Sequence record: MT701590.1
DNA length: 64,000 nucleotides
From: Klebsiella phage Miami
Direction: 5' to 3' (one strand)
Shown here: positions 427 through 41,084 of the stretch, one piece after another
Layout of the letters: each line of letters starts with the position of its first letter
Numbering within the stretch: position 1 is the first letter of the stretch
Made by a program: the position numbers and the translations under genes
Notes under the pieces: model-generated
The model's database searches: none
Told to the model about the DNA's origin: nothing
Seen by the model: the letters and a program-made list of their open reading frames with translations, nothing else

Positions 427-454
427 ATTCCTCTACCCACGTGGGTAGAGGAAT
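427..454 (+). terminator. rho-independent terminator of the CTCCTAC..GTAGGAG stem family
   Basis: attcctctaccc-acgt-gggtagaggaat followed by a T-rich tract. Confidence 0.5.
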
Positions 455-490
455 AATAATACTTTTTTATTTTTTAAGGTTATCTCACTC

Positions 491-1078
491 ATGGCTAAAA
501 TTTATTTCTACTTCTCTTCGATGAATTCCGGGAAGACTACCGGTTTGTTACAATCAGCCTACAACTACACTGAAAGAGGGATGTCCGTCTTACTTCTTAA
601 GCCTAAACTTGATAATAGAGAAGGAGAAGACGCGATAATTAAATCAAGGATAGGATTAGAAAGCGAATGTGTTTTCATTCCTGATAACGACGATGAATTA
701 GTCGATCTTATTCATAATAACAAAGGTGTTTCGGCTATATTTATCGACGAGGTTCAATTCGTCTCCCCGCATACACTGGCCGGACTAATGACCTTGTGCG
801 ATAATTACGACATTCCTCTTCTCTGCTATGGTCTCCGGAACGCCTATGACGGAAAAGGGTTCCCGGGCTCTGATTTCTTATTGCGTCACGCTGATAAACT
901 GGTTGAATGCAAATCGATTTGTTGGTGTGGTAAAAAGGCGACCCACAACATGATGGTTGTCGATGGGAAGGTGGTAAGGGAAACCACGTCAGGGGGAAAT
1001 ATGGTTGTCGGCGGTAATGAACTGTATCACGCCGTTTGCAGGTATCATTTCTTCGAAGGCAAATACAAAGAAGATTAA
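491..1078 (+). CDS. tdk: thymidine kinase
   Basis: N-terminal P-loop FSSMNSGKTTGLLQ, DEVQF motif and a C-terminal Cys cluster (CWCG...CRYH), co-linear with E. coli Tdk. Confidence 0.9.
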   Translation: MAKIYFYFSSMNSGKTTGLLQSAYNYTERGMSVLLLKPKLDNREGEDAIIKSRIGLESECVFIPDNDDELVDLIHNNKGVSAIFIDEVQFVSPHTLAGLMTLCDNYDIPLLCYGLRNAYDGKGFPGSDFLLRHADKLVECKSICWCGKKATHNMMVVDGKVVRETTSGGNMVVGGNELYHAVCRYHFFEGKYKED

Positions 1079-1156
1079 CTTATATTTATTTTGAGATCTA
1101 CATTATCATGGTGTAAGCATAGTACGTTTTTATTTTCCTTTTTAGGAGCTAACATC

Positions 1157-1651
1157 ATGATGAGTCAACTTGTAAATATTCTGAGTGAGCACAGATCAGC
1201 GTTTATTTGGCCTTCCAACATCCTGCAGTTAGAAGATGAATACTTCTATCTCTCGGTCAAGATTACGGAGAGTGGTGTGGTCAAATGTATCTTCCGGAAC
1301 AAACTCACCAAAGACGTCCGTAAGTTCGACTTCTCTGACATCATTTTTGATAAAGAGGGGTTATGGGATTACTTCAATGCGATCGGCAAAGAAGTCTACG
1401 CCATTGGGATTGACTACGGTAAAGGGTTCCAGCTGAAGATGTTGTTTGAGCCGATTAAGGCGATGATCACCGATAAGGCGCATAAGCCTTATAATGGGCA
1501 TCTTCCAAGAGACGTAAGAGCACCACTGTTTTCCCCGGTTAACGCCCGCAGTATTTATCTCGACGAAAACGGCGAAGTCACACTCGATGGCTTCGAATGG
1601 GCTTCTCGTGGATTGCAATTAAAAATCATCGAAGAGCTCTTAATTAGCTAA
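1157..1651 (+). CDS. hypothetical protein
   Basis: ORF table lists 1091; start refined to ATG 1157, which follows an aggag SD (MMSQLVNIL...). Confidence 0.5.
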   Translation: MMSQLVNILSEHRSAFIWPSNILQLEDEYFYLSVKITESGVVKCIFRNKLTKDVRKFDFSDIIFDKEGLWDYFNAIGKEVYAIGIDYGKGFQLKMLFEPIKAMITDKAHKPYNGHLPRDVRAPLFSPVNARSIYLDENGEVTLDGFEWASRGLQLKIIEELLIS

Positions 1652-1694
1652 TTAATGTTATGCTAATTAGCTCATCACTGTAAAGAGGATTAAG

Positions 1695-2171
1695 ATGAAA
1701 AACCTGCTCGATTTAGTGCTCAAATTTTTCATTGGGCTTAACCCAGGCCTGGCCGTACTGATGGAAGGTGGTTCGATCGTCAATGTGGTTGAAAAACCAG
1801 AAATCGATCGTTACGCCGGTGATATCATGCGTCCGGACGGCACAACCAAGCTTCTGTCGGTAACCTGGAAACCGGGTACATTTAAAGGCGTGTTCGGCCT
1901 CGATCCAGCCTTTGCTCCCGTCACGCAGGATGAAGCAGGCACAACCGAAGGTATCTTCCTGAAGACCGACGGCACGCCTTACTTTGCGTTGACGGCTGAA
2001 AATGCTACCGAAGCCAAAATCGAAGAAATCCTCGGATATGCTTTCGAAGAAGGCACGGTCGCAGTAGACACCGAAACCAAAAAGGTCAGCTTCGCAACGT
2101 CTACTATCGTTGCTGAAGTCGATCTGGTCGTTATCGAAGCGGCTCCGGTGGCCGACGGCCAACTGCCGTAA
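1695..2171 (+). CDS. hypothetical protein (158 aa)
   Basis: SD aagagga upstream; terminator hairpin 9 nt after the stop. Preferred over the overlapping minus ORF 1713..2261. Confidence 0.5.
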   Translation: MKNLLDLVLKFFIGLNPGLAVLMEGGSIVNVVEKPEIDRYAGDIMRPDGTTKLLSVTWKPGTFKGVFGLDPAFAPVTQDEAGTTEGIFLKTDGTPYFALTAENATEAKIEEILGYAFEEGTVAVDTETKKVSFATSTIVAEVDLVVIEAAPVADGQLP

Positions 2172-2179
2172 TAAGTAAC

Positions 2180-2213
2180 CTACTCCTACGCCCTTAACGG
2201 GGCGTAGGAGTAG
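2180..2213 (+). terminator. terminator hairpin (CTCCTAC family)
   Basis: ctactcctacgccc-ttaac-ggggcgtaggagtag; the T tract is weak. Confidence 0.4.
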
Positions 2214-2276
2214 TTCGTTAATTATAACTGACTTTTTTAATATATAACCACCAACGTTCATTTAGGACATAACACC

Positions 2277-2483
2277 ATGTTGTATGACGCAATTGAAGTT
2301 TGTTTTATCGTAATTTCCATTCTTTCCTTTATCTGGGTAATGAAGAAGAAAGGAACCGGGGCGATGTTAATTATTGCGTTTTCTATTGTTGTCGTGGCAG
2401 GATGTCGTTATCAAGATAACGCCGATACCGAACAAGCTTTAGAACATCCAAAATATACCAAATCTAACTGCGGCTGCTTATAA
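2277..2483 (+). CDS. small membrane protein, possible lipoprotein
   Basis: Hydrophobic N-terminus; an internal MKKKGTGAMLIIAFSIVVVAG|C reads as a lipoprotein signal peptide with lipobox VAGC. Confidence 0.4.
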   Translation: MLYDAIEVCFIVISILSFIWVMKKKGTGAMLIIAFSIVVVAGCRYQDNADTEQALEHPKYTKSNCGCL

Positions 2484-2495
2484 GAGGAACTGATT

Positions 2496-3383: not shown

Positions 3384-3926
3384 ATGTCGGAAATCATCAG
3401 TTACAATAAAGCGCAGCTGGTTAATGGGTTCGAACTCGTTTGCCATCATCGCACCATTCACCTGTTCGAAGATGTTTTCGAAAAGGGCAGGTACAATAAA
3501 GAGTTCGTTGCTAAATTTGACGAACTGGAAGTATTTTTGGATGTTCGTTACGCGATCATCTTAGGGAGAAAAGATAAAGACCTCACACTGCATCTAATTC
3601 GCAGTAATGCGGCTCGTGAGATCGTCAGCTGGGATTATCATTACAAATCTAACGATAACAACCCCGACAATTGGAAGATGGAAGCCATCGGACAGTTTAT
3701 CATCAGTGATATGGAGCAGGGATATTTCTCCCTCTCCCCTGGCTATCGAAGCGACATTAATGATCTTCTGACTTACATTGGCGGTCAAGAGAAAGAGGTC
3801 AATATTCGCAATACCGAAATCAGCGTCAGCGAAGGTAAATTTAACTTCGTCGGTCGGAACGGCCAGCTCGGCCCGGGTTTGTTGTCAGAGACTAAACCAG
3901 TTAACCTCATACAGCTATGGGCGTAA
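3384..3926 (+). CDS. hypothetical protein
   Basis: ORF with an aggaaaaaac SD context; ends at the bidirectional terminator. Confidence 0.5.
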   Translation: MSEIISYNKAQLVNGFELVCHHRTIHLFEDVFEKGRYNKEFVAKFDELEVFLDVRYAIILGRKDKDLTLHLIRSNAAREIVSWDYHYKSNDNNPDNWKMEAIGQFIISDMEQGYFSLSPGYRSDINDLLTYIGGQEKEVNIRNTEISVSEGKFNFVGRNGQLGPGLLSETKPVNLIQLWA

Positions 3927-3927
3927 T

Positions 3928-3963
3928 AATACTCCTACTCCCGTATCGGGAGTAGGAGTATTA
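3928..3963. terminator. bidirectional terminator (CTCCTAC family) between convergent genes
   Basis: aatactcctactcccg-tat-cgggagtaggagtatt followed by agctttttgtttttt. Confidence 0.6.
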
Positions 3964-3975
3964 GCTTTTTGTTTT

Positions 3976-6030
3976 TTAGAAAAGGTCTAAAACCGAAGAT
4001 GCAGATTTAGGAAGCGGCAAGGTAGGTAATTCGAGATCCATTAACTCCAATGCCTCTTCTCCACCGATAGCCCTCAATGAAGGATTATTCAGTGTACTCT
4101 GAGATAACAGCTCTTCAACGTTGTCCCTCGACCACTGTAGAATATCGATGGACCGGGTCATGATATTGATTTCTTTACCGGTGTCCAACTCGATCATCCA
4201 GAAGAAGCAAGGTTTATCCTGACCTTGTCTGAAGATACGCGCCTTGGTCTGTTTCAGCTCGTAATCCCTCCAAGGAGCATCCATGAGAATCTCCTGGTTA
4301 GCCACGACCATGTGCGCGGATTCTCTCAAGGATCTGAAGGTGGTAACCGCTGGGTTCAAATCAGGTTCCGTATCAAACCGTTTGATCAGGATGTCTTTAG
4401 ACTGATCGGCATCACCGTAAATCAATAGCGGTTTAAACCCTTCCTTGTTAAGCACACTATAGACTTCATTCAGCACATCCACATAAGACGTAAAGATCAG
4501 TGTTTTCTTCTCTACGTTGTTTATCATGGATGGAAGTCCTGCATGCGCAACAACGGCCCTTACGGCTTCTATACGGGCCTTACCCAACACATTACCTAAA
4601 GCCTCCCCTCTTATCTTCAAGCCAACGTACTTAACGGCCGATTTGATATTGCGGAACTGTTTCAGCTGTTCTCCACGTAATCTAGCTTCAATGTCGATTT
4701 CGACGTTCTTAGCGTACTGGGAATCAGCTGAGTCAGTAAAGTTGTTATAACCGTGAGTTCTGAACCGATTCACGATCTGTTTGTATTTAACCAGTTCGCC
4801 CAACTTACCGTTGTCATCTTTAACGTAGCTTTCGTAATCGTCTAAAACGTGATTAAAGAAAGCCAAAAACATCGGCATGTTTTGTTCGTAGAACTTGACT
4901 CGGTTCTGTATGTAAGAAAGCATTTCGAGTCTAATGGCTTTCAACGTGAATCGTTCGCCATTAGGAACGGTAACCGGAACCATTTCTACCGGTGGCTCCT
5001 CACCCATATCAAAGAGAGAATCAATGACGTAACGTGTTCTACCCAACCGATGGGCCAGAAGGGTGTTAAGTTTATCCCTGGATAGCCCGTAAGACTTCAT
5101 GAAACGCTCTCTGGCGTTACCTTTAAAGAAAGGATCTATCAGTGCAAAGATCGAATATGCTTCCCTTGCCATGGCTTTTAGCGGTGTTCCTGACATAGGA
5201 AGAGCATCGTTAAACGGATAGTGATCAGCAGCTTTAATGATATTCTGAGTTTGTTTAGAACTCAGCTCGTTAAAGTTGTGGGATTCGTCTACAACGAGAG
5301 AAACTCCGCCTTTACCAGCCGCTTCGAAAACTTGGTCAAGGATCTTAAAGAAATCAGGGTTTCTTGTATAATCAATGTGAATAAGGAAGTATTCGCAAGA
5401 AGGATCAAACGGTTTATTTTGACGGGTACTCCAATACTTAGGAGGATCAACAAAAACCTTCTCTTCCATATGCAGCTTCCAGACGGTATTGATGCCTGCG
5501 TCTGGGCAAATGATAATGTGTTTTTTATTTCCCGTCAGTCGGGTCCACATAAGGCTAGTGAAAGTCTTTCCGCTTCCGGCCTTGGCATCCAGCAAAAGTC
5601 CTTTAAGATGGTGCGACTTTTTAACCATTTTGTAAGTGGATAAAAAACCCCATTGAGTGTCATAAGGTTTTATTTTAAACTGTTTTAAAAAAGAAGCTTT
5701 GTCTATCGGATAAGCTGTAGGGGTAACAGTATCCTTTATCCAGGTATCCGTTCTGAGTTTTATTTGGAGTTCGTTAAGGTTCTTACGACTACTCCAAGTA
5801 TTTCTCGACTGGAGGATCTTTGTTATTAGATGATCCAACTCCAATAAGAAAAAGTTATCCGTAACGAACTTATTGGACCCAACACGTCTGAACATATAAC
5901 GACCTGGCGTGCTTGTGCCATACGCGGTCTGTATGTCGTCATTAAAGTTACGGAAGTTAACATGATTGATTTCCGTAATAGTCGGTCCTTGTTTAACATC
6001 AGGCCCAAAGATATAGTTTAACATCACCAA
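3976..6030 (-). CDS. SF2 (DExH/SNF2-like) helicase
   Basis: Motif I DAKAGSGKTFTS, motif II VVDESHN, motif III SGTP and motif VI RIFRQGQDKP. Confidence 0.8.
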   Translation of the reverse strand: MVMLNYIFGPDVKQGPTITEINHVNFRNFNDDIQTAYGTSTPGRYMFRRVGSNKFVTDNFFLLELDHLITKILQSRNTWSSRKNLNELQIKLRTDTWIKDTVTPTAYPIDKASFLKQFKIKPYDTQWGFLSTYKMVKKSHHLKGLLLDAKAGSGKTFTSLMWTRLTGNKKHIIICPDAGINTVWKLHMEEKVFVDPPKYWSTRQNKPFDPSCEYFLIHIDYTRNPDFFKILDQVFEAAGKGGVSLVVDESHNFNELSSKQTQNIIKAADHYPFNDALPMSGTPLKAMAREAYSIFALIDPFFKGNARERFMKSYGLSRDKLNTLLAHRLGRTRYVIDSLFDMGEEPPVEMVPVTVPNGERFTLKAIRLEMLSYIQNRVKFYEQNMPMFLAFFNHVLDDYESYVKDDNGKLGELVKYKQIVNRFRTHGYNNFTDSADSQYAKNVEIDIEARLRGEQLKQFRNIKSAVKYVGLKIRGEALGNVLGKARIEAVRAVVAHAGLPSMINNVEKKTLIFTSYVDVLNEVYSVLNKEGFKPLLIYGDADQSKDILIKRFDTEPDLNPAVTTFRSLRESAHMVVANQEILMDAPWRDYELKQTKARIFRQGQDKPCFFWMIELDTGKEINIMTRSIDILQWSRDNVEELLSQSTLNNPSLRAIGGEEALELMDLELPTLPLPKSASSVLDLF

Positions 6031-6054: not shown

Positions 6055-7332
6055 ATGAATTCTGTCGACATCAACACCTATAAGAAGTTCTTCTCTGCTG
6101 TTGCCGCTGAACTGTTCAGTAATCTGGAAGATCTCAAAATCGTTTCCCATCGTCACGCGCTGTTAAATATTCTGTTTATCGACGGGATCAAAATCAGTAC
6201 GGGTGAACGTCGCCGCTATGCCTTCCACGAAAAGCATCTGAAGGCGGTCAAAGAACGCATTAACCTGGGCGACTTCTCTTTCCTCGATGAGCAGGTTCGG
6301 GATAAAGATTTCCAGCCGCGACAGTATAAAGGCGTCGAAATCGATCACGCTTACGGCTATGTGGTCAGCGCGGTCCCGGTCTTCACTTCCATGGAACAGC
6401 GCGGCACCGGCGATAAGGAATTCGACAACATGACCACCGGCCAACTGGCACGCGTCGATCAGTGGTTCACCGACTACTCTAAGAAAGAAACCGACCAGCT
6501 GAAAACCATCGCTGACTTGACCGAAGCCTGGGGTAAATTCACCACGACGGTCAAGGATCACGATCTCTACTTCGGATTCGACATCGAAGATCATAAAATC
6601 AGTCTGACGCTGGATAAAGCGCCTCCTATCGCTGATGAGATCAAGATCCTTCGTCAGCCGGTTACCCTGGAGCAACTCGCTGAGTTCTCTGAAGATGACC
6701 AGAAACACATTGCTGGTGTTCAGGCTGCCATCGACAAGATGAACGAACTCACTTCAGGGTTCTTCGGCATCGAGCTGGGTAACAAATACCTCACCCAATT
6801 CCGTGAGCGTATTTGGGAGCAGAACTTCTCCATGCCGCTTCAGTACCAGACCAACATCGTCTATGAGTTCACCGATAACACGCCTGAAACTCGTGCCCTC
6901 GTAGAGGAACAAGTCGAAAAGGTTATCAGTCTGCTGAAAGATAAAGAAGCCGAGCTGGGTAATCGCGTCTACCTCGACACTAACTCGCTGGCGACCTTCG
7001 TTATTAACGAAGAAGGCGCTAACGAATACTACGATTACCCAGTGGTCCGTGAGATGTGGTCGAAGTTCGTTCGTTCGTTCGGTAAAGCGATCCTCAACCT
7101 GATGAACCAGACCGAATCGGTTTACTTCAAACCCTACATCTCTAAGGTAACCAAAGTGGAAACCGAAGAAACTGTAGCGGCGCCGGCTCGTGGCGAAACG
7201 CCGCATCTGGTTGCAGTGGATGAACCGGCTTTTGTAGACGGTGATGCAGAAGTGGTAGTTGAGGACGATTCTGCCCAGGATGAAACCTATGCGCTCGAAG
7301 GCAACGCTCAGGCTCCTAGCCAAACCGTTTAA
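6055..7332 (+). CDS. hypothetical protein with a strongly acidic C-terminus
   Basis: 425-aa ORF with an aggagtag SD; the C-terminal 60 aa are rich in D/E. Confidence 0.55.
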   Translation: MNSVDINTYKKFFSAVAAELFSNLEDLKIVSHRHALLNILFIDGIKISTGERRRYAFHEKHLKAVKERINLGDFSFLDEQVRDKDFQPRQYKGVEIDHAYGYVVSAVPVFTSMEQRGTGDKEFDNMTTGQLARVDQWFTDYSKKETDQLKTIADLTEAWGKFTTTVKDHDLYFGFDIEDHKISLTLDKAPPIADEIKILRQPVTLEQLAEFSEDDQKHIAGVQAAIDKMNELTSGFFGIELGNKYLTQFRERIWEQNFSMPLQYQTNIVYEFTDNTPETRALVEEQVEKVISLLKDKEAELGNRVYLDTNSLATFVINEEGANEYYDYPVVREMWSKFVRSFGKAILNLMNQTESVYFKPYISKVTKVETEETVAAPARGETPHLVAVDEPAFVDGDAEVVVEDDSAQDETYALEGNAQAPSQTV

Positions 7333-7350: not shown

Positions 7351-7382
7351 TATTCCTCCTACCCTTACGGGTAGGAGGAATA
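7351..7382. terminator. bidirectional terminator (CTCCTAC family)
   Basis: tattcctcctaccc-ttac-gggtaggaggaata followed by a T-rich tract. Confidence 0.6.
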
Positions 7383-7398
7383 TATTTCTGTTATTTTT

Positions 7399-8058
7399 TT
7401 ACGGCGTTTGTTCATTCTTAGCGGCTATTAACGCAGCCTCTAATTCCTGAATGTACAATTGTTGTTTGGTTATGGTTTCGGCTTGCTTAGCAAGTTTGAT
7501 TTGATCCGTCTCAGCATTAGCGATGGCGTTAAGCCGAGTAGATTCAAATATTTCCGCATCTTCTTTCGAGACATAAGCCCTGGTAGGAATACTACCAATG
7601 TAGCTCTTCGCGTTGACAAGTCCGAAGTTAGTTTTCGCGTAATCTTGGAAGTGATCGATCAACGTGTTAATTTTATCCGCCATCTGAGGAGGGCACGCTC
7701 CCAGGTCGGTGTAAACAACAAATCTTTCAAAGATCACCCCGTCAATTAGGGGAAAGGATTTGATATAGGTGCTGGGAATATAAACCGGAGATCCGTTTTT
7801 AGAGGTCAGGGTGATGATCGCCCCGTTATTCTCTTCTACCAGATCTAAGATACTTTCATAAGCATCTTCTGATATCCCCACTGGTTCGAACATCAATCCC
7901 CAAACATCAATATTCCTGTTTCGGAACTGTGCCGCTGTACAGACGTCTTCCACTTTATAAAAGATGGACTCGTCGACCACTGTTGTAAAAGGTGTGATCG
8001 CGGTAAATTGTCCCGCGGCATAGAGTGAAGGAATGACGTTTTTATCAGTGTCTGCCAT
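7399..8058 (-). CDS. hypothetical protein
   Basis: 219-aa ORF forming an operon with 8069..9406. Confidence 0.5.
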   Translation of the reverse strand: MADTDKNVIPSLYAAGQFTAITPFTTVVDESIFYKVEDVCTAAQFRNRNIDVWGLMFEPVGISEDAYESILDLVEENNGAIITLTSKNGSPVYIPSTYIKSFPLIDGVIFERFVVYTDLGACPPQMADKINTLIDHFQDYAKTNFGLVNAKSYIGSIPTRAYVSKEDAEIFESTRLNAIANAETDQIKLAKQAETITKQQLYIQELEAALIAAKNEQTP

Positions 8059-16003: not shown

Positions 16004-16034
16004 CAGGAGAGAGGGCAATGCCCTCTCTCCCATT

Positions 16035-17633: not shown

Positions 17634-17665
17634 TAACCCTATTATTTATTTTTTAGGATATCGTC

Positions 17666-27857: not shown

Positions 27858-29471
27858 ATGCAACCTACTAATATTACGTTATTGAACCCAAACAAAGTGG
27901 CTTGGGCTCTCATGAAAGCCGTGACGTCAACAGACGTCCATGAGGGGATGACCAACAACCTTCATGAAGATGGTTTATACTCTCCAACAATCTTCGGTCG
28001 TGTCGGTACCGACCAACGAGATAAAACTCAATCTTACATCAATGTTAAGATTCCTGTCTTCAACCCGACTTATTTTAAGGCTTTGATTGGGTTAAAGGGT
28101 TTGTATCTCGGAATAATCAAAGGGACGGAATACGCCCTTTGGGACGCATCAGAACGCGACTTCATAAAATCAAACCTCCTGGAAGGAGAAACCGGCTACG
28201 GTTTCTTTATGCGTCACTTTTACGACTTAGAACCTAAGTTAAACGAAAGTTATAAACGCAAACAGCGCGTAGAACTCTTTAATAAATTTAAAGACATCGC
28301 GTTGACTAAAAACATCATTGTGCTGCCGGCTGGTATTCGTGATATCCAGGTTGAACCCAACGGCCAGATCGTGGAACCTGAAATAAATGATTTCTATCGT
28401 AAACTGATCTTCCGTAGTCGCAGCGTGGTTATCCAGGAAGGTGAAGAAGATAACCCGATTTACGATAACATCCGTTGGGCGATTCAAAGCGTGTTCAACG
28501 ATATCGACGATTATATCTTCCGGCTGATGGAAGGTAAGCGTGGATTCTTACAGCGCCGAGTCTCAACTCGTGGTGTTGTTGGGGGTACTCGTAACGTTAT
28601 TACCGCTCGTAAAGTTTCTGTTGCTGATGCGGATGATGATAATGGGGTTGACGTTAACACCACAGATATCGGGATGTATCAAGCGCTGTTGGGTTTCCAA
28701 TACGTTGCACGATATGCGTTACTTAAAGGTTTCTTAAGCCGCGTGTTTACGGTAGGGTCAAGTACGGCTAAACTCGTCGACCCCAGAACCTTCGAATATC
28801 AATACGTTGAAGTTGAGAGCAACATTGTTGACAAATGGTTGTCGGCCGATGGACTCACCGCTCTGTTCAACGGATTCGGAACGAGGCACTTGCGTCATAA
28901 ACCGATCAAAATTAATGGCTATTACATGGGCCTGACCTATGATGACGGTAAATATGTCAAGTTACTCGGTGACGTAACCGAACTTCCTCCTGGGTTTGAT
29001 AAGAAGTTCTGCAAACCATTGACTTACATGGAACTCTTCTATTTAAGTTGTGTCGAAGAAATAGAAAAGAGAATGCTTCAGGTTACCCGCTATCCGATCA
29101 CCGGGATGGGTTCTATCTATCCCAGCCTCATCAAAATCAAAACGACAACTAACGCCGAAAAAAGAATCATCTTAGATGATTACTGGGAAGAAGGTTATCG
29201 TTGCACATACTACCCAGTCCGAGAAACTAAACCGGATTATTTCGACGCCATGAGTGTCGATGGCAGTCGGTTAGGTTTATTGGGTGGGGACTTCGATGGC
29301 GACCAACTTAACAGTAACTCCATCAACGGAGAGGATGCTATTGCTGAAGCTAAAGCTTTAATGGGCAGACGCGATTACTATATCACCGGCACGGGGCAGT
29401 TCCTTTACAGTCCAACGGTGGAACCTCACGAATTCTTATTCCGAAATCTCAGTAACGGACTCAACCTATGA
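27858..29471 (+). CDS. virion RNA polymerase, beta-prime subunit N-terminal fragment (split multisubunit RNAP)
   Basis: 537-aa ORF with LGGDFDGDQLN (the beta-prime Mg-binding NADFDGD motif) near its C-terminal end, as in the phiKZ beta-prime N-terminal fragment gp180. It sits next to the gp181-like giant gene as in phiKZ. Confidence 0.6.
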   Translation: MQPTNITLLNPNKVAWALMKAVTSTDVHEGMTNNLHEDGLYSPTIFGRVGTDQRDKTQSYINVKIPVFNPTYFKALIGLKGLYLGIIKGTEYALWDASERDFIKSNLLEGETGYGFFMRHFYDLEPKLNESYKRKQRVELFNKFKDIALTKNIIVLPAGIRDIQVEPNGQIVEPEINDFYRKLIFRSRSVVIQEGEEDNPIYDNIRWAIQSVFNDIDDYIFRLMEGKRGFLQRRVSTRGVVGGTRNVITARKVSVADADDDNGVDVNTTDIGMYQALLGFQYVARYALLKGFLSRVFTVGSSTAKLVDPRTFEYQYVEVESNIVDKWLSADGLTALFNGFGTRHLRHKPIKINGYYMGLTYDDGKYVKLLGDVTELPPGFDKKFCKPLTYMELFYLSCVEEIEKRMLQVTRYPITGMGSIYPSLIKIKTTTNAEKRIILDDYWEEGYRCTYYPVRETKPDYFDAMSVDGSRLGLLGGDFDGDQLNSNSINGEDAIAEAKALMGRRDYYITGTGQFLYSPTVEPHEFLFRNLSNGLNL

Positions 29472-33724: not shown

Positions 33725-33725
33725 A

Positions 33726-34586
33726 ATGTCTATCGCCCTAACCAAAGCGATTAAAGATATCCAGGTATCTTTAAAAGAGGTGGGGCTTTATCCTTCTAAG
33801 ATCGATGGTGTGTGGGGGGATGGAAGTTCGACTGGCTTCCTTACCCTCATCAACTATTATGCGTCTAAAGAAGGTAAAGCGTCTCAAGTTAAAATCGGTC
33901 CTAAGGTCGGCAACGAAGTAGCCTTTAAAACAGTTCAGCAACAACTCCAAAACGTCGGGCTTTACGGCGGTACGATCGACGGACTTTGGGGTAACGGAAC
34001 CAAAACCGCTTTGGCAACTCTGAACAGCGTCTTCCGTTTAGGTTATCAACTACCTAAATACAGCGCATGCTGGAGTAAGAAGGTTGAACCGGCATTCGTT
34101 GCCCGTTGTAAGAAATGGGTGGACGACGAAGCTCTGGTTCCTGAATGCCTTGATTTCGTCATGGCGATTATGTGTTTCGAATCAGGCGGTACCTTCCGAC
34201 CAGATATTCAGAATCGCGCCGGCGCCAACTATTGGGGTTTAATCCAATTCGGTACTGCGGCCGCAACCGATCTGGGTACTACTCTTGACAAACTCAAGAA
34301 GATGACTCAGATGGAGCAACTGGAGTATGTGTTTAAATACTTCAAGATGCGGATGAAATCGTATAAACTGAAAAGTCTGGAAGATTTCTATATGTCCGTA
34401 TTTTACCCGGCCGCAATAGGTAAATCTCCTGACACCATGATCTTCGCCAATGGTTCTGTTGGTTATCGCCAGAATAACTTACTGGACGTTGACAAAGACG
34501 GTAAGATTACCGTTGGAGAAATCAGCGTTAAAATCTATCAAACTTACTACGACGGGATGCTACCCGTTAATCGGAGAATTGTCTAA
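33726..34586 (+). CDS. endolysin: two N-terminal peptidoglycan-binding repeats plus a C-terminal lytic transglycosylase domain (KZ144-like)
   Basis: Two PG_binding_1-like repeats (LKEVGLYPSKIDGVWGDGSSTGFLTL and LQNVGLYGGTIDGLWGNGTKTALATL), then FESGGTF...YWGLIQF with the catalytic Glu-Ser pair. Start refined to ATG 33726, which follows gaggaaaataaa. Confidence 0.8.
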   Translation: MSIALTKAIKDIQVSLKEVGLYPSKIDGVWGDGSSTGFLTLINYYASKEGKASQVKIGPKVGNEVAFKTVQQQLQNVGLYGGTIDGLWGNGTKTALATLNSVFRLGYQLPKYSACWSKKVEPAFVARCKKWVDDEALVPECLDFVMAIMCFESGGTFRPDIQNRAGANYWGLIQFGTAAATDLGTTLDKLKKMTQMEQLEYVFKYFKMRMKSYKLKSLEDFYMSVFYPAAIGKSPDTMIFANGSVGYRQNNLLDVDKDGKITVGEISVKIYQTYYDGMLPVNRRIV

Positions 34587-34747
34587 TGGACGATACCATT
34601 AAAGAAGCGGTCGCTATCGCCAATTTGTTTGAATTGGTTAAAGCAACAACCGGGAAAGTCGGACTTGAATATATGGCCCCCATTGATGATTCTCGTGCCG
34701 ACGAAATTATCAGCGGTGCTATCAACGCGGCAGTAAAAGGACAATAA
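34586..34747 (+). CDS. small ORF (53 aa) overlapping the endolysin stop
   Basis: TAATG overlap at 34584-34588; MDDTIKEAVAIANLFELVKATTGKV...; absent from the ORF table because it is shorter than 60 aa; ends 2 nt before the next start. Confidence 0.3.
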   Translation: MDDTIKEAVAIANLFELVKATTGKVGLEYMAPIDDSRADEIISGAINAAVKGQ

Positions 34748-34749
34748 CA

Positions 34750-36249
34750 ATGATCAAGCAATCTTCCGTTTTCATTGCGTTGCCTATCGCAGAAAGTTTG
34801 GTTGGTGTTAACAAAACCTTTGCTGATAAAAGCCATCCGCTCATCAAAGGCCTAAGCGAATGCAGCTATGGATTGGTTCCCTATACCCTCGATAACCTTC
34901 CTTTGACTTTACCGGAAGTTACTCACGAGGAAATGGAACACGGTTTGCTGCTGGATGAAGCCAGTACAACACTCGCTGAATCTGTTCGTAAGAGTTTCCA
35001 GCAAATCAGCCATTACCTCAAACCTTTCGCGAAAAATCTCATCGAAGAAATTTACAAGGCGACAGATATTGATGAAGACGCTACACGTCAGATTTTTGAC
35101 CGTCTTCAGATTGAATACCGTAAGCTCGATTACAGCTTCTTCGATAGCCCGTTTTACCCGAAAGAGATTGACGGCTCTATCGACTACAGCAAGATCCCTC
35201 TGAAAGATCTGATGTTGCCGGATAACGCAGTTGATAAAGACTTCGGCGGGTTCGCCGATTATATCCAGGCGCCTAACGCAGAGATCAAAGAGATCTTTGA
35301 AGCTTATCAGCCGGGTTGGGCGTTCGATAAATTTATTGGGAACAACAACTGGGCCGACGTCTTCAATATTTTCAACGGTAATGTTGATCTGACAACGGCC
35401 GGTTACAAAGACCCGGCACCTCTGTTCAGTCTGTACGTGCTGTTTACGAAAATGAAAGCGGATGAAAATCCGGCTCCATTCGTAAAAAATATCGAACTCC
35501 ATCAGTATCGTGGTTACGTCAACCGGATGCATAACTTCCTGACCGTAGCGCTTGTTTTTTGTTCTCGCTACTATCAGGGTTTGAAACTCACTCCAATGCC
35601 TGTTTTATCTTTGGTGGGCAAAATGGAAATGGATCGTGGGATTAACCTCCTGCGCGGTAAAATCGTCGTAGGTCTTACCAAAAAAGGTCTTGATCTTTAC
35701 GCAGCGGCGGCACCTGAAGGTTCTGTGAGTGAAGCTCTGGCCGGTAAGGCAGTGGCCATGATCGCAACCAAGTCCGATAAAGCTGGTTTGAACATCGTTG
35801 CAGGCGCAGAGTACTTCCAGGAAGTATTCCGCAATTACCTGGCTGGCGTAACGGGATCTCTGAACGCTAAGATCACTGAATCCTGTCGGGACGCAGTTGA
35901 GAATGCGCTGATCAAGTTCCAGAACGAACACGCGGAACTCAAAGATACCGTGATGGGTCTCAATGACAAAATTGAATTCCGTCGTCTGAGCCACGCTCTG
36001 CAGTCTGACGTGGATGCGTTCGTTGGTGGTTATAAATCGCAAGTTGTCGCTAACGGCGTTCCGCTGGATAAATACGTCATGGGTTCTGATCTCGTTGCCT
36101 CTCTGGGTAACCTGATGGGTATGACGTTCGCGGCGGATGTACTGCGCACCAGTGCTCGCTTGATCGGTTCAGGTGAGATCACCGATGTTCAGAAACGCGA
36201 AGCGCTGACCGAAGCGGTTGTAAAATCTTTAGTTAAACATCTTGTCTAA
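34750..36249 (+). CDS. hypothetical protein (499 aa)
   Basis: Long ORF with an aaaggacaataacaATG context. Confidence 0.55.
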   Translation: MIKQSSVFIALPIAESLVGVNKTFADKSHPLIKGLSECSYGLVPYTLDNLPLTLPEVTHEEMEHGLLLDEASTTLAESVRKSFQQISHYLKPFAKNLIEEIYKATDIDEDATRQIFDRLQIEYRKLDYSFFDSPFYPKEIDGSIDYSKIPLKDLMLPDNAVDKDFGGFADYIQAPNAEIKEIFEAYQPGWAFDKFIGNNNWADVFNIFNGNVDLTTAGYKDPAPLFSLYVLFTKMKADENPAPFVKNIELHQYRGYVNRMHNFLTVALVFCSRYYQGLKLTPMPVLSLVGKMEMDRGINLLRGKIVVGLTKKGLDLYAAAAPEGSVSEALAGKAVAMIATKSDKAGLNIVAGAEYFQEVFRNYLAGVTGSLNAKITESCRDAVENALIKFQNEHAELKDTVMGLNDKIEFRRLSHALQSDVDAFVGGYKSQVVANGVPLDKYVMGSDLVASLGNLMGMTFAADVLRTSARLIGSGEITDVQKREALTEAVVKSLVKHLV

Positions 36250-36264
36250 TCGGGAATTTAATCC

Positions 36265-36990
36265 ATGAACTATTCGGCTCTAACGAGAAATAAGGATCGG
36301 GTCTTTAAAGCATTAAAAGAGTTAGAGGGCCATTCGGTTATCGCTCTGGAGCCGTTAGAGGTTCATATCCCCAAACGCTTTATCGAGCGATCACTAGCCG
36401 ATATCGGTGATAAGGTTGAAACGATCGGTGTTCTGGGGATCGTCATTCCCGATGTCGCTTATTGCTGCATGTATCGCGTGGCTACTGTAACACTGTCACC
36501 AAGTAACATCAGGGAAATCACAATAGACGGCGTAAGATATGTCGTATTGGATTTCGAGAAGGGCGATACAGTCTTTAACAACATCGAGGTCGTTAAAGAC
36601 GAACATCTCAACTATTCTTATTACATGGAGTTCGGGTATTTCGCAAGGGTTCCTTGGTACGTCGATGTAACGATGGCACCTAAGCTTTTCGATTACGCCG
36701 GGCTGATCACCGGTAAGAAAGTAGGGACGAGTCCTCAGGTATTCAGGGTGCTTTACGGATTATCATATCGAGATCCCGATAACTACGAGATCGCTTATCG
36801 TTACGGCCCAGGAATTAAGGCCGGGAAGAAACCTCACCTGGTGGGGCTCAATAACGGCAGCATGTTGATAGATGGAACATTCAACCGCCTCATGGGCGGA
36901 TATCTGGCCGACAACACCATTGCGGCTATTCTTAATCCTGATACCAAAGTCACTGATTCAGAAAAAGTGATGAAGGGATCGCCAGAATAA
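36265..36990 (+). CDS. hypothetical protein
   Basis: 241-aa ORF in a tight array. Confidence 0.5.
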   Translation: MNYSALTRNKDRVFKALKELEGHSVIALEPLEVHIPKRFIERSLADIGDKVETIGVLGIVIPDVAYCCMYRVATVTLSPSNIREITIDGVRYVVLDFEKGDTVFNNIEVVKDEHLNYSYYMEFGYFARVPWYVDVTMAPKLFDYAGLITGKKVGTSPQVFRVLYGLSYRDPDNYEIAYRYGPGIKAGKKPHLVGLNNGSMLIDGTFNRLMGGYLADNTIAAILNPDTKVTDSEKVMKGSPE

Positions 36991-37004
36991 AATAAGGGTA
37001 AACC

Positions 37005-37868
37005 GTGAGTCAGTTTTCTTTCGGCAACATTATTCTTGCCAGCAACGGTAAGAAAGGACTACTAAAGCCGATCGATGATTCTGGTTACTATCTGCTTAAC
37101 GCGGGGGGATTTAACGTCCCTAACCGTAACGGGATTAAATATACTGCCAATCAGTATATTCAAGAGTGTATGTCCGAGGACTCCGATCTCATGCGTCGTA
37201 TTAAACGCGGTGAGGTTTATGGGGAATGCGGACATCCTCCTATGTTCTTTTACGAACGCGTCAACGGTGTGATAGTAAGAACCAAGATCACCGATCTGTA
37301 TCAATGGATCATGCGTCTTAAAACTATCGACATGGACAGGGCGGCTTTCCACATTCGCAATATCCATTTTGATACTGATGCATGGACCCCTAACAACAAC
37401 GGCCCGATCTATAACAGTATCGAAGTTAAACCTTACCTTTCAACGGTGTTTGGTAAGATGTTTGAAGAGAATCTGTTAACACCTGATATGAACACTTCTG
37501 TGTCTATCAGGACGGTCACCGCTCCTCAGCAATTCGGTCATAAGACTCGTGAGGTCGAATACTTCACTGGTTACGATTGGGTTTATGAAGCGGGCATGGA
37601 TTGGGCTAACAAACACATGACTGCCGGATGCGAAGCCTTCCTGCAAGAAATGGTGTTTGACGAAAAACAATCCATGACGTTGGATACCGATACCGCCATT
37701 CAGCTGATCGAAGCAGGACTGGAGAAGGTTGACGATATTCGTAGCGTTGAAGGGGTAGAAGCCTTTGAATCCATCAAAGGACTGCTCGGGTCTCTTAAAC
37801 GTCACAACGAAGACCGTAAACAGAAACACACCATTTCCTACGCTTCTAACTGCCTGGATTTATTCTGA
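37005..37868 (+). CDS. hypothetical protein
   Basis: 287-aa ORF (GTG/ATG context taagggtaaaccGTG); terminator follows. Confidence 0.5.
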   Translation: MSQFSFGNIILASNGKKGLLKPIDDSGYYLLNAGGFNVPNRNGIKYTANQYIQECMSEDSDLMRRIKRGEVYGECGHPPMFFYERVNGVIVRTKITDLYQWIMRLKTIDMDRAAFHIRNIHFDTDAWTPNNNGPIYNSIEVKPYLSTVFGKMFEENLLTPDMNTSVSIRTVTAPQQFGHKTREVEYFTGYDWVYEAGMDWANKHMTAGCEAFLQEMVFDEKQSMTLDTDTAIQLIEAGLEKVDDIRSVEGVEAFESIKGLLGSLKRHNEDRKQKHTISYASNCLDLF

Positions 37869-37870
37869 TA

Positions 37871-37906
37871 ATAACTGGAGGGGGAAACCCCTCCAGTTAT
37901 TTTTTA
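37871..37906 (+). terminator. rho-independent terminator
   Basis: ataactggaggggg-aaa-cccctccagttat followed immediately by tttttt. Confidence 0.65.
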
Positions 37907-37954
37907 CTCACATCCTATTTTTATGTCGACATAACACAATAAGCGAGTTTAACC

Positions 37955-38605
37955 ATGTTTAAGAAAGATCTCTCACTCACTCAACTCAATGATCTGGCGG
38001 CGATCAATTTTCTGGTAACTGTTCCTCTGGAAGTTAAATTGATCAGCAATCTTTACGGCGAGATGGAACGTATTTGGGGTCAGATGCGCGATCAATATGG
38101 TGAGCATCTCATCGAACGTAATCTCGGTGGCGGTGTCAAATCCGACGGCGTAAGAGATTATGCCGAGAAACTCACCGTTCTCGTTTTTAACTCCATCGGG
38201 TCGTTCCAGCGCGGCTTGTCGAAGAAAACCATCAGTGATAAGAATGATGAGGCGACAACGCTCATTCGTCGCGTACCGGCGTACACCGATCTGACAAACG
38301 AAAAACTTTTCAAGATCTTCATGATCAACCTCTTCGGTTACGACGAAGATCTTATCGCAATCTCTTTTGCGACTAACGATAAAGATCGTAGCAAACTGCT
38401 CTTCCGCTACATCCTCAATCGTTTTGACATCGTTCGTAACAATCCTGAGTCCGAAGAACTTATGGAAGGTTTCTATCCTGATAACTTCTTCGAGATCGTT
38501 GCCGAAAGACCAAGCGACGTTTATCAGGAATGTTTCGCGTACATCGTAGAACAGGGTTATCCGGTCATGAAAGCGCTGCAGTACTACGCGTCCTCATTAC
38601 GCTAA
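37955..38605 (+). CDS. hypothetical protein
   Basis: 216-aa ORF. Confidence 0.5.
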   Translation: MFKKDLSLTQLNDLAAINFLVTVPLEVKLISNLYGEMERIWGQMRDQYGEHLIERNLGGGVKSDGVRDYAEKLTVLVFNSIGSFQRGLSKKTISDKNDEATTLIRRVPAYTDLTNEKLFKIFMINLFGYDEDLIAISFATNDKDRSKLLFRYILNRFDIVRNNPESEELMEGFYPDNFFEIVAERPSDVYQECFAYIVEQGYPVMKALQYYASSLR

Positions 38606-38738
38606 AAGTTTTAAGACCTATATAACTAAGGTGAGGCAAACACAGACAAGACAGTCTGGGTGATGTTGTAACATCATCTTTTTGTTTCCTCATCTTTCTT
38701 ATTTTTTTAACATCCAATTTATTATCGAGGACCGAAGA

Positions 38739-39182
38739 GTGAGCAAACTTAACAAAACTTATGCTGAATCCCAAACTGCCGCTATTGCCAATCTGACCGA
38801 ACACGCGAGCTACGACAAAGCAACGGCGCACACTACCTTTTCAGCAGAAAAGTTTTCTTTGCCTGAAGGGGTAACCCCTGAAAGTATTAAGACGCACAAA
38901 GATCTCTTCATTGACATCACCGGTGCAATCGAAGAAGCTACCGCGCAACAAACGCTGGCTGCTCATAAAGCCGATGAAAAAATTCTCACCACCACAGGTT
39001 CTCTGGAACTGGGCGGGGTCGTCTTTACCTCTCAGCACCACCTGAAACAAAAAGTAGGCGAACACGATCTGTTCGGCGGGAGCGTGACCAGCGTCGATTA
39101 TATCTATTCTCCTGAAGCGACCGAATGGGCGGCAAGCATGCGCGCCAATAACGCGAGTATCGCCGAAGATCTTTTTAAATAA
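38739..39182 (+). CDS. hypothetical protein, likely highly expressed
   Basis: Table start 38682; refined to GTG 38739, which follows gagga at 8-nt spacing (SKLNKTYAESQ...); Ala/Thr-rich; strong terminator after the stop. Confidence 0.45.
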   Translation: MSKLNKTYAESQTAAIANLTEHASYDKATAHTTFSAEKFSLPEGVTPESIKTHKDLFIDITGAIEEATAQQTLAAHKADEKILTTTGSLELGGVVFTSQHHLKQKVGEHDLFGGSVTSVDYIYSPEATEWAASMRANNASIAEDLFK

Positions 39183-39189
39183 GGCATTC

Positions 39190-39216
39190 TTACTCCTGCC
39201 CTTAGGGCAGGAGTAA
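39190..39216 (+). terminator. terminator (CTCCTAC-like family)
   Basis: ttactcctgccc-tta-gggcaggagtaa followed by ggcgttttattttttt. Confidence 0.6.
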
Positions 39217-39252
39217 ATAAGGCGTTTTATTTTTTTAGGGGAAGAAAGTAGA

Positions 39253-39531
39253 ATGGCTTCTAAGTCAACCACAAGAATCTACGAACTTGCTGATGGTGGG
39301 ATTCGGATTGGGTTTGTGAGAAATGAAGGATCGATCAAGGTTAAGGTAGAGCAGTTTGACCGAGAGCGCAAACTCATGAATCTGTATGGCGCAACCATCC
39401 ATATTTTAGAAAAAGCGGGCGCCATCACTGAACTAAGAAAAGTATTAGGTAAACAATTTCCGCGTTGGGGATTCGACATGAATCCCGAAGCAAAGGAAGA
39501 CATCGTGCTTACTTTTATCAAATTGTTCTAG
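39253..39531 (+). CDS. hypothetical protein (92 aa)
   Basis: ORF with a gggaagaaagtagaATG SD. Confidence 0.45.
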   Translation: MASKSTTRIYELADGGIRIGFVRNEGSIKVKVEQFDRERKLMNLYGATIHILEKAGAITELRKVLGKQFPRWGFDMNPEAKEDIVLTFIKLF

Positions 39532-39650
39532 TATTTTATGGTAGGGGTGCTTTAGGCACTCCTACTGGACTCATCGTGCATTTTAATTCAACACACAAAA
39601 AGAATGAGACCTGTACTATTTAAGTAAGAACAATGATAGGAGTTGCTTTC

Positions 39651-40334
39651 ATGGATTCAATAAGCTGGTACGGAAAATTTAAAGCAGTAACCGAGGATTT
39701 GATTCCGGTTGATCTTTTACGGTACTGCTTATGGTCGATCACCTTTAATGACAAAGCGCATGATTTGAATCACGTTTATCATGTTTGTAAACAAGGGAAC
39801 GATCTTGCATTATTACAAGATTACGATGACCACTGGCGAAGCCTAGTATTGGCGGGTTGTCTGCTTCACGACATTGGGTGTCGTTACGATCGTAAAACCC
39901 ATCATCTCATAGCGTATGGGTTGGTCTTCGACTTAACCCATCGTTATTGCACTGGACACTATTCGCCGGAAGAGACATTGATCATTGCGAAAAGTTGTCT
40001 GGAGCACAGAGCAAGCTGGGAAGGTGATTTCAGTCATCCTATTTCAGAAACGGTTGCTCTGGCCGACAGAGGTATTCCTGATTTCGAGTTATACTGCAAA
40101 CGAGCCGTTCAGTTCAGGTTAGATCAAAACCTGACTGAAGATGTTTTGGTAGAAGAAGTTCGCGTTCACATGTTAGACAAGTTCCTACCTAAGACGGGAT
40201 ACGTTTGGAAAAACTATCCTGAATTAGGATTGTCTTTATATGAACAAGAATGGAAAGTGTTCCACGATAAACTTAAAGACGAAGTTGTCTTTAGAGAGGC
40301 TGTACTAGAAGCGTACCGTAAATTAAAATCTTAA
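39651..40334 (+). CDS. HD-domain phosphohydrolase
   Basis: H..HD signature: NHVYHVCKQG ... LAGCLLHDIGCRYDRKTHH. Start refined to ATG 39651, which follows taggag. Confidence 0.55.
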   Translation: MDSISWYGKFKAVTEDLIPVDLLRYCLWSITFNDKAHDLNHVYHVCKQGNDLALLQDYDDHWRSLVLAGCLLHDIGCRYDRKTHHLIAYGLVFDLTHRYCTGHYSPEETLIIAKSCLEHRASWEGDFSHPISETVALADRGIPDFELYCKRAVQFRLDQNLTEDVLVEEVRVHMLDKFLPKTGYVWKNYPELGLSLYEQEWKVFHDKLKDEVVFREAVLEAYRKLKS

Positions 40335-40391
40335 TCTATATTGTTAACGTCCTCATAAGGGGCGTTAACAATAACCTACGAGGAAATCATC

Positions 40392-40886
40392 ATGATTATT
40401 TTACTTGCTGTTTTTGCTATTATCCTTTGTATTGGTTTTTGTTATAAAAAGATCAATATCAAAAACGACATCGGAATCAAGGTTAACAACGCCACAAAGA
40501 TGGTTATCGACATCAACCTTGGTAAAATTAAAGGGGAGTTCAAGATCGTTAAACACAGTCGGTGTTTCAAACCCAGGGTCTCTCCTGGATTAAACGGATT
40601 GGTTTACACCGTTCCTGTGTTTTGTACGTTATCTGAATTCATCACCGGCTTATATTCTGAAGAAATAAGACCTTACGACAAACAAAAAGATAAACACCTC
40701 TTAGACGTCGTCAGAGCCATCGTAGGGGTCGAATTAAAGGACGATGGTATGATTGCCTTATTCGACGACACGACCCTTTGTGAGACCGTAGAGAGAGCCA
40801 GAGAGTCATTTGTGATGAATAAGGATTATTTCTTCTCCGAGAAGGGGTGGAACCGAGGCAATGTTATTGCACCTATCAACCTTTAA
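40392..40886 (+). CDS. membrane protein (N-terminal transmembrane segment)
   Basis: MIILLAVFAIILCIGFCY hydrophobic N-terminus; SD aggaaatcatcATG. Confidence 0.45.
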   Translation: MIILLAVFAIILCIGFCYKKINIKNDIGIKVNNATKMVIDINLGKIKGEFKIVKHSRCFKPRVSPGLNGLVYTVPVFCTLSEFITGLYSEEIRPYDKQKDKHLLDVVRAIVGVELKDDGMIALFDDTTLCETVERARESFVMNKDYFFSEKGWNRGNVIAPINL

Positions 40887-40900
40887 TTAAGGATTTTAAA

Positions 40901-41041
40901 ATGTCTGACATGTTTGACGTGGATCAACTCAACAACCTGAACCTGGAAGCGGTTGAAGAGAAAGTCGAATCTCTTCGTGATGGTGGCGGTGAAGTTGTCG
41001 AGGCTTCCGATGAATGTGAAGGCGGCGCCTGCAAAATTTAA
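40901..41041 (+). CDS. small acidic protein (46 aa)
   Basis: ATG follows aagga; MSDMFDVDQLNNLNLEAVEEK...; C-terminal Cys pair. Confidence 0.3.
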   Translation: MSDMFDVDQLNNLNLEAVEEKVESLRDGGGEVVEASDECEGGACKI

Positions 41042-41050
41042 AACGCATAA

Positions 41051-41084
41051 TAACTCCTACTCCCCATACGGGGAGTAGGAGTTA
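41051..41084. terminator. bidirectional terminator (CTCCTAC family) between convergent genes
   Basis: taactcctactcccc-atac-ggggagtaggagtta, with tttttttttttt at 41094-41105. Confidence 0.65.

Follow-up and report, generated by a model that had tools for sequence, protein, structure and literature searches.

Gene-end hairpins with a shared stem word in Klebsiella phage Miami: probable transcription terminators of a nucleus-forming jumbo phage

Introduction

Conserved terminator motifs are already known from the chimalliviruses phiKZ and 201phi2-1. In phiKZ, ONT-cappable-seq mapped 133 termination regions, and the motif BCCYCCCCHWWDGGGRRGGBYTTATKYYGT is common to 61 of the mapped terminators (Putzeys et al., 2024; PMC10914365). 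For 201phi2-1 the map comprises 132 termination sites, and in vivo tests covered eight terminators; its motif A (n = 59) is similar to that of phiKZ, and the stem is longer in motif A+B (PMC11512511). Here we analyse a family of hairpins built on the stem word CTCCTAC and its complement GTAGGAG in a 64,000-nt stretch of Klebsiella phage Miami (MT701590.1), referred to below as the window. A first-pass annotation of the window, made from the sequence alone, had picked out seven such hairpins, regarded them as terminators and proposed that their common stem is recognised by its sequence.

The phage is a ~252 kb Klebsiella chimallivirus, that is, a jumbo phage of the phiKZ kind that forms a nucleus and encodes RNA polymerases (RNAPs) of its own. 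We assign it to this group because the window encodes two RNAP beta-type subunits (split; phrog_2986 and phrog_3148; genes at 27858-33724) and a phiKZ gp29-like sheath, and because its relative KPN8 encodes a nuclear-shell protein, just upstream of a homologue of the non-virion RNAP beta subunit (nvRNAP-beta), and a PhuZ homologue. Over its first 20 kb the window is 97% identical to the Klebsiella phages YC1 and KPN8 and 93-97% identical to three further phages of ~252-257 kb; Vibrio, Photobacterium, Aeromonas and Edwardsiella jumbo phages match it only over ~500 bp (74-75%) or in fragments of ~58 bp. The KPN8 genome was assembled with its 298 annotated genes, and all genome-wide counts below refer to it.

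Results

A hairpin family with a common stem word

Hairpin coordinates were taken from a scan of the window for perfect inverted repeats. All seven of the noted hairpins proved to be perfect inverted repeats, with stems of 12-17 bp and loops of 3-6 nt. Five contain the exact word (2180-2213, 3927-3963, 7351-7382, 17606-17633 and 41051-41084) and two contain one-off variants of it (426-455 and 39190-39216). The pattern CTCCTAC N(2-20) GTAGGAG occurs at five sites in the window (2183, 3932, 7356, 17610 and 41054), compared with 0.01 expected from shuffles, and the bare word CTCCTAC is present in 13 copies on the two strands together, where 5.3 +/- 2.2 are expected. Ten of these copies belong to the five exact hairpins, one to an imperfect hairpin at 39540-39566, and only two (12467 and 15729) to coding sequence.

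When folded as RNA, the seven hairpins reach -22 to -31.5 kcal/mol (z = -3.2 to -8.3). All begin 0-18 nt past a stop codon, in agreement with the first-pass annotation, and three of them (3927, 7351 and 41051) lie between convergent genes. The T tract that the annotation had placed after the hairpins is present but begins 2-19 nt past the stem and in most cases does not adjoin it. The annotation had also held that other terminators of the window use unrelated stems. This is so for 9848, 11408, 16006, 18785, 37870, 49544 and 63501, whose stems are truly different in sequence, but not for 53294 and 57860, which are diverged relatives of the family. The imperfect hairpin at 39540 is a further relative. 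The two copies of the word are separated by 6-14 nt with perfect pairing between them, and this variable spacing favours a hairpin over the site of a dimeric binder of duplex DNA. Rfam gave no match anywhere in the window, and ACTCCTAC, taken from the stem word, is part of a universal 16S primer and so is unspecific as a literature query.

Placement across the genome

In KPN8, 33 of the 50 copies of CTCCTAC, counted on both strands, fall within the intergenic 5.8% of the genome, a density ~32 times that of coding sequence. An equal frequency of the 7-mer inside genes, which the first-pass annotation had named as the result that would count against the family, is therefore found neither here nor in the window. 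A census of perfect, G+C-containing hairpins with stems of at least 10 bp yielded 52 in KPN8 and 0-4 in shuffled genomes. These hairpins are concentrated at convergent junctions, 16 of 18 of which have one, as do 30 of 251 co-directional (+ +) and 1 of 11 co-directional (- -) junctions; at divergent junctions there are none (0/17). The median distance from stop codon to stem is 6 nt, and a T-run of at least four follows within 30 nt downstream of 83% of the hairpins as against 13% of random windows; an upstream A-run accompanies only 39%.

The exact 7-mer is shared by 13 of the 47 intergenic hairpins of KPN8 and CCTAC by 19 of the 47, with about 10 more of them containing near-copies of the word, whereas shuffling of the arms (2000 trials) never gave more than five hairpins sharing a word. 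Word-bearing hairpins are dispersed across the whole genome. That only 13 of 47 have the exact 7-mer bears out the earlier remark that structure alone does not need this sequence. What the placement, flanks and word sharing in KPN8 signify is a 3'-end element with a shared word.

The start of the T-run depends on which arm comes first. Its median start is +10.5 nt where the pyrimidine-rich arm leads, as in the CTCCTAC-type hairpins, and +3 where the purine-rich arm does (p = 0.004). Hairpins of the latter kind (GGAG..CTCC; compare 37870-37901 in the window) look canonical, and in KPN8 their T-run comes directly past the stem. The offsets suggest that two mechanistic classes of 3' hairpin may exist in one genome.

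Selection on the sense-strand RNA

Because a G.U pair reads as an A.C mismatch on the opposite strand, the imperfections of the stems are informative. In KPN8 intergenic hairpins with one or two non-complementary positions, read on the sense strand, 11 of 12 such positions are G.T or T.G, one is G.A and none is A.C. Chance hairpins inside genes display all mismatch types, with G.T or T.G at 8 of 54 (Fisher p = 7e-7 against the intergenic hairpins). Since only sense-strand G.U is seen, and never A.C, selection acts on the sense-strand RNA and not on a DNA cruciform.

When the six genomes were compared, the stems were almost invariant and the flanks variable. The few stem changes are a U.G wobble in hairpin 2180 and two compensatory changes, namely a paired A/T insertion or deletion in hairpin 3927 and a G>A and C>T pair in hairpin 37870, the last of which is found in phage VB_ZK_P1.

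Conservation in other jumbo phages

Viral contigs were scanned with the exact pattern CTCCTACYCC N(3-7) GGRGTAGGAG. At least 50 stretches contain the motif, mostly on contigs of 220-285 kb, which include Vibrio and Photobacterium jumbo phages; two of the contigs are putatively Photobacterium phage PDCC-1 (237,509 bp) and Vibrio phage Aphrodite1 (237,722 bp). The consensus across the contigs is TAWWACTCCTACTCCC-loop-GGGAGTAGGAGTWWTA. Among the matches listed, 44 of 53 word-bearing hairpins adjoin the end of a long open reading frame (ORF), and 32 of the 53 lie between convergent ORFs. Given that the word is kept at non-orthologous sites, across genera with almost no nucleotide identity, the stem sequence itself, and not the structure alone, is probably conserved and under selection; simple drift plus homogenisation would not predict this. 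Selection on the word is most plausibly exerted by the phage transcription or RNA-handling machinery.

Inversion of the loops

Between the six phage genomes, 93-97% identical, the loops are exactly inverted at five or more hairpins. The alternative forms are GATAA and TTATC at hairpin 3927, TTAC and GTAA at 7351, AAA and TTT at 18785, GCAT and ATGC at 41051, and gataa and ttatc at 57860 (ttatc in KPN8). At 16006-16030 and 39190-39216 the inversion is ambiguous, as a single substitution gives the same outcome. The groupings of strains conflict between sites and the pattern does not follow phylogeny, so either the flipping is recurrent or the strains recombine. Strand exchange between the arms of the palindrome, or template switching from one to the other, would account for the inversions and would also help to keep the arms perfectly complementary; the orientation of the loop is evidently neutral.

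The first-pass annotation had also raised the possibilities of a recombination hotspot and of a dispersed element like the repetitive extragenic palindromic (REP) sequences. The former stands in so far as loops invert between strains; only loops do so, however, and the HNH endonuclease gene that KPN8 has near hairpin 426 sits in the start of the tk gene and not in the hairpin. The latter does not stand. Similarity is confined to the stem, the flanks, loops and stem lengths differ, and the hairpins are at gene 3' ends only, with none of the 17 divergent junctions occupied; we therefore rejected a repeat of the REP type or of the type of miniature inverted-repeat transposable elements.

Individual hairpins of the window

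The following hairpins were assigned to the + strand. The first, TATTCCTCTACCC-acgt-GGGTAGAGGAATA at 426-455, has the variant word CCTCTAC (CCTCTACCC/GGGTAGAGG) and lies 3 nt past the stop codon of ORF 165-422, with the co-directional tk gene (491) next; it folds with -22.1 kcal/mol (z -5.8), is unchanged in five relatives and is followed after 7 nt by the T-run TTTTTTATTTTTT (463-475, +). At 2180-2213, 8 nt past the stop of ORF 1695-2171, stands CTACTCCTACGCCC-ttaacg-GGGCGTAGGAGTAG (14 bp stem, 6-nt loop), which has one U.G pair on the + strand in five relatives. The hairpin AATACTCCTACC-ttag-GGTAGGAGTATT at 17606-17633 (12 bp stem, 4-nt loop; T-run 17642-17654) comes 12 nt past the stop of ORF 17165-17593, and the next gene runs from 17666. 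At 39190-39216, TTACTCCTGCCC-tta-GGGCAGGAGTAA begins 7 nt past the stop of ORF 38682-39182 (T-run 39225-39236), and its word, CTCCTGCCC/GGGCAGGAG, differs by an A>G on one arm paired with a T>C on the other. In the imperfect hairpin GGTAGGGGTGC..GCACTCCTAC at 39540-39566 the order of the arms is reversed, the purine-rich one leading and the 3' one bearing the word; it lies 8 nt past the stop of ORF 39253-39531 and folds with -19.6 kcal/mol (folded stretch 39520-39600).

The hairpins at convergent junctions were assigned to neither strand. Genes 3384-3926 (+) and 3976-6030 (-) converge on TAATACTCCTACTCCCG-tat-CGGGAGTAGGAGTATTA at 3927-3963 (17 bp stem, 3-nt loop; T-run 3966-3977), and genes 6055-7332 (+) and 7399-8058 (-) on TATTCCTCCTACCC-ttac-GGGTAGGAGGAATA at 7351-7382 (14 bp stem, 4-nt loop; T-run 7391-7400), which has a terminator-like score on both strands. 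The hairpin TAACTCCTACTCCCC-atac-GGGGAGTAGGAGTTA at 41051-41084 (15 bp stem, 4-nt loop; T-run 41092-41104) is flanked by a + gene and by the convergent gene 41106-42002 (-). Two diverged members, likewise without strand, are TATACCCCTACGGCG-atta-CGCCGTAGGGGTATA at 53294-53327, with CCCCTAC, a T-run at 53329-53337 and the convergent gene 53336-53941 (-) next to it, and TATACTCTCCTCCCC-gataa-GGGGAGGAGAGTATA at 57860-57894, with the word ACTCTCCTCCCC, a T-run at 57897-57909 and the convergent gene 57911-59401 (-).

Hairpins of the same functional class with other stems include AATAACTGGAGGGG-gaaa-CCCCTCCAGTTATT at 37870-37901 (+), in which the purine-rich arm comes first and TTTT follows directly past the stem, and the hairpin at 18785-18819 (no strand), whose stem word ATAACTACCGTCTCCC belongs to a family also present at 49544-49573. 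This second, smaller word family, (A)TAACTACCG, is represented in the window by those two hairpins and in phage phiKp_32 by one at 6590-6620; one of its copies travels with a gene inserted in phiKp_32 just past the 3927-type hairpin.

Other features of the window and its relatives

In KPN8 (148330-149412) an HNH endonuclease gene is located within the first codons of tk, and a recoded copy of these codons comes after it. The insertion is absent from the window (tk start at 491) and from YC1; a gene occupies this site in phiKp_32, VB_ZK_P1 and BUCTxx100. We rejected a link between the endonuclease and hairpin 426, the KPN8 gene being inserted in the coding start of tk. In phiKp_32 (31667-39347) and VB_ZK_P1 (31618-40655) the RNAP beta genes are in pieces, several ORFs being separated by additional genes, probably owing to introns or homing-endonuclease insertions; the equivalent genes are intact in the window (27858-33724).

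A LAGLIDADG_3 domain at residues 450-504, within the 1187-aa ORF at 49450-53013 (+), points to an intein or to a homing endonuclease embedded in it. As called, this ORF also takes in hairpin 49544-49573, and its true start may be downstream. A 2268-aa ORF at 21031-27837 (-) belongs to a giant tail-fibre-like family (phrog_3201) and has an endolysin domain near residues 1931-2143; its product is probably a virion-associated protein that degrades the cell wall. About 1.1 kb at ~60300-61420 is without long ORFs and includes, at 60823-60964, extremely A/T-rich nested palindromes flanked by G+C blocks of alternating purines and pyrimidines, for example GGCGCGCGCCAGCGCGTGTGTGCATGTGCGTGCGCGCACGCGT. 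This region looks like an origin, a packaging site or an early-promoter region.

Discussion

From the anatomy of the hairpins, their genomic placement, the selection on RNA and the conservation across the lineage we infer that they end transcripts. We consider it likely that they are the RNA 3'-end hairpins of a chimallivirus that transcribes its genome by multisubunit RNAPs of its own, namely transcription terminators that act in both directions where genes converge. A role as terminator or 3'-end element, as the first-pass annotation had it, is well supported by context: in KPN8, 16 of 18 convergent junctions have a hairpin and none of the 17 divergent ones does, T-runs follow them far more often than chance allows (83% against 13%), and imperfect pairs are G.U on the sense strand.

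Each unit consists of a stop codon, a spacer of about 6 nt and a perfect palindrome of 12-17 bp around a loop of 3-6 nt of variable sequence. The palindrome has an A/T-rich base (TAWWA/TWWTA), a pyrimidine-rich 5' arm with (A)CTCCTAC(Y)CC and a purine-rich 3' arm GG(R)GTAGGAG(T), with a TTAT-T(5-10) run about 10 nt further on. Based on this layout, we propose that the nascent RNA would fold into the hairpin and that the phage RNAP would release in the U/A-rich stretch, either at UAUU at the base of the stem or beyond it, in the displaced U-run. Being very stable, the hairpin may then protect the RNA 3' end. Through its perfect palindromy one element could serve both strands at convergent junctions. 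A stop-to-stem distance of 6 nt is shorter than coupled transcription and translation would be expected to allow in E. coli, and a ribosome-free phage nucleus would lift the interference of terminating ribosomes with a stem so placed. Candidates for what conserves the word are a requirement of the non-canonical RNAPs and a dedicated RNA-binding factor; pure concerted evolution is less likely.

Several points weigh against this interpretation. No transcriptome of this phage lineage was found in the literature, so termination rests on context and analogy. A canonical bacterial terminator does not tolerate a T-run displaced to a median of +10.5 nt. No more than about a quarter to half of the phage's 3' hairpins bear the word, which is thus not required for a 3' hairpin, and it is mechanistically awkward for a perfect RNA duplex to be read by its sequence.

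The alternative that survives best extends the terminator interpretation rather than excluding it. The word may be the binding site of a dedicated phage factor, such as a termination or antitermination protein, a protein that processes or stabilises 3' ends, or an adaptor for mRNA export, which would read the 5' arm as single-stranded RNA or the folded hairpin, the word marking a subclass of transcripts. We hold this only tentatively, as roughly a one-in-four prospect. Retention of the word in non-orthologous hairpins of phages of different host genera with almost no nucleotide identity, word sharing in excess of what composition predicts, and restriction of the word to a subset of hairpins, as expected of a class label, all speak for such a factor. 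The export of chimallivirus mRNA is an unresolved matter, and the RNA-binding protein ChmC/Imp6, encoded near the RNAP genes, would be a candidate RNA binder (PMC13282480). However, no candidate protein emerged in our analysis, hairpins with the word occur throughout the KPN8 genome, and the constraint could come from the polymerase itself. Moreover, a reader would have to ignore most of the structure, given that loops flip freely and that stem length and loop size vary. A narrower and somewhat more speculative version is that ACUCCUAC(Y)CC serves as a tag whose reader is either a dedicated phage protein or one of the two phage RNAPs. Such a tag, with similarly modest probability, might single out a subclass of transcripts to be terminated in a regulated way, protected at the 3' end or exported from the phage nucleus; if so, chimallivirus mRNA handling would have its first defined cis-acting RNA signal.

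It is rather unlikely that the similarity has no sequence-specific function and that the hairpins are ordinary terminators related by common descent, duplicated together with gene cassettes and kept alike through gene conversion or ectopic recombination from one palindrome to another. At the DNA level the palindromes are indeed active, as the inversion of at least five loops among the six genomes attests, inserted genes bring their own hairpins, and the second word family TAACTACCG exists beside the first. Yet homogenisation alone should give each lineage its own word, whereas Klebsiella, Vibrio and Photobacterium phages all keep ACTCCTACTCC, and there is no homology in the flanks.

Less probable by a wide step is that the elements act as DNA, either as cruciform or hairpin palindromes in replication, recombination or packaging or as sites of a protein that blocks the polymerase. 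The palindromes are perfect, loop inversion needs strand exchange or template switching of DNA, and a word is mechanistically easier to read in double-stranded DNA than in double-stranded RNA. Nonetheless, the restriction of imperfections to sense-strand G.U, never A.C, is an asymmetry with meaning for RNA only; the spacing of 6-14 bp between word copies is unlike that of a dimeric duplex-DNA binder, and the hairpins are found strictly at gene 3' ends with a strand-specific T-run.

Finally, a promoter module of hairpin and T-rich tract driving the downstream gene, as in N4 virion-RNAP promoters or T4-type cassettes, has next to nothing to recommend it beyond co-directional T-runs that end 9-15 nt ahead of the next start codon, and we rejected it, including its N4-type form, because hairpin and T-run are present at 16 of 18 convergent junctions, at which that strand has no gene further on, and divergent junctions are empty (0/17), because the stems lie past stop codons and measure 12-17 bp where those of N4 promoters measure 5-7 bp, and because sigma-70-like matches are at chance level (31 against 33 expected). 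A Shine-Dalgarno role for the AGGAG of the 3' arm was also rejected, start codons being about 33-36 nt from the stem.

If the terminator interpretation is right, it has a bearing on how non-canonical phage RNAPs terminate. The motif would provide an annotation rule for the ends of transcription units in these phages, and the hairpins could serve as compact, possibly bidirectional insulator parts for the engineering of therapeutic Klebsiella jumbo phages.

Among known systems, the terminators of phiKZ and 201phi2-1 are the closest. Here as there, a chimallivirus with its own RNAPs has dozens of gene-end hairpins per genome that share a motif, and KPN8 has one sequence motif common to many of its gene-end hairpins. 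The 5' arm is pyrimidine-rich (CTCC/TCCC) and the 3' arm purine-rich (GGAG/GGGA), followed by TTAT and more T-rich sequence; upstream ATAA can pair with TTAT to give a longer stem; and some hairpins are bidirectional at convergent genes. In most of our copies GTAGGAG is followed by TATT, TTATTA, TTA or GAATA, which pairs with the upstream ATAA. As a positive control, our hairpin census of 50 kb of phiKZ recovered GCCCTCCC-ttcg-GGGAGGGC with TTTAT(T)n after it and, in many cases, a CATAA ahead of it that can pair with TTATG. Compared with the phiKZ consensus stem CCYCCCC/GGGRRGG around a loop of ~4 nt, the arm polarity is the same and several copies have a CTCCC..GGGAG apex, but the conserved word is different: CTCCTAC(Y)CC is absent from phiKZ hairpins, and CTCCTAC is not enriched there (1+1 copies in 50 kb). 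The palindromes are also perfect over 12-17 bp, as opposed to phiKZ stems of 7-10 bp, and the T-run is shifted by ~10 nt from the stem. Annotated terminators of Goslar have CCTCC..GGAGG and TTAT, for example CCTCCTTCCC..GGGGAAGGAGG-attat, and the first 50 kb of that genome contain almost no perfect hairpins of at least 8 bp, only imperfect CCTCC..GGAGG ones. We therefore rejected the idea that perfect palindromes are universal in chimalliviruses; the habit is lineage-specific.

Canonical Rho-independent terminators share with these elements a stable, G+C-containing hairpin just past genes and, in the present case, at nearly every convergent junction; some sites, such as 7351, also have the paired A-rich and T-rich flanks of bidirectional terminators. 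They differ in that the U-tract here usually stands apart from the stem and the stem sequence is common to many sites. A canonical U-tract starts 0-2 nt past the stem, whereas that of the CTCCTAC-type class starts at a median of +10.5 nt, and among the seven hairpins only 3927 and 7351 pass as canonical on the + strand, 2180 doing so only on the - strand. The promoter-plus-stem-loop (PeSL) cassettes of T4-type phages and the hairpin promoters of N4, which lie upstream of early genes and have a stem of 5-7 bp and a 3-nt loop, are promoter-linked stem-loops. Like them, our hairpins are dispersed, intergenic and conserved in sequence in large virulent phages, and inserted cassettes bring their own copy; unlike them, they stand at 3' ends, including convergent junctions, with no associated sigma-70-type promoter. 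Minute inversions of hairpin loops, recurrent among close relatives and not following phylogeny, are known from chloroplast non-coding DNA. The loops likewise flip between perfect inverted repeats here, as a side-effect at phage terminator palindromes.

By analogy with the phiKZ-type phages, we regard the CTCCTAC hairpins as a probable lineage-specific version of the conserved terminator motif already mapped there. The motif would thereby be extended, with a different and more sharply defined word, to a separate lineage, that of the Klebsiella, Vibrio and Photobacterium jumbo phages and their relatives, and three chimallivirus lineages with the same design and a word of their own suggest that the phage transcription machinery constrains the terminator sequence. 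While conserved terminator motifs as such are known from phiKZ and 201phi2-1, the stem word, the long perfect palindromes and the displaced T-run set the present hairpins apart.

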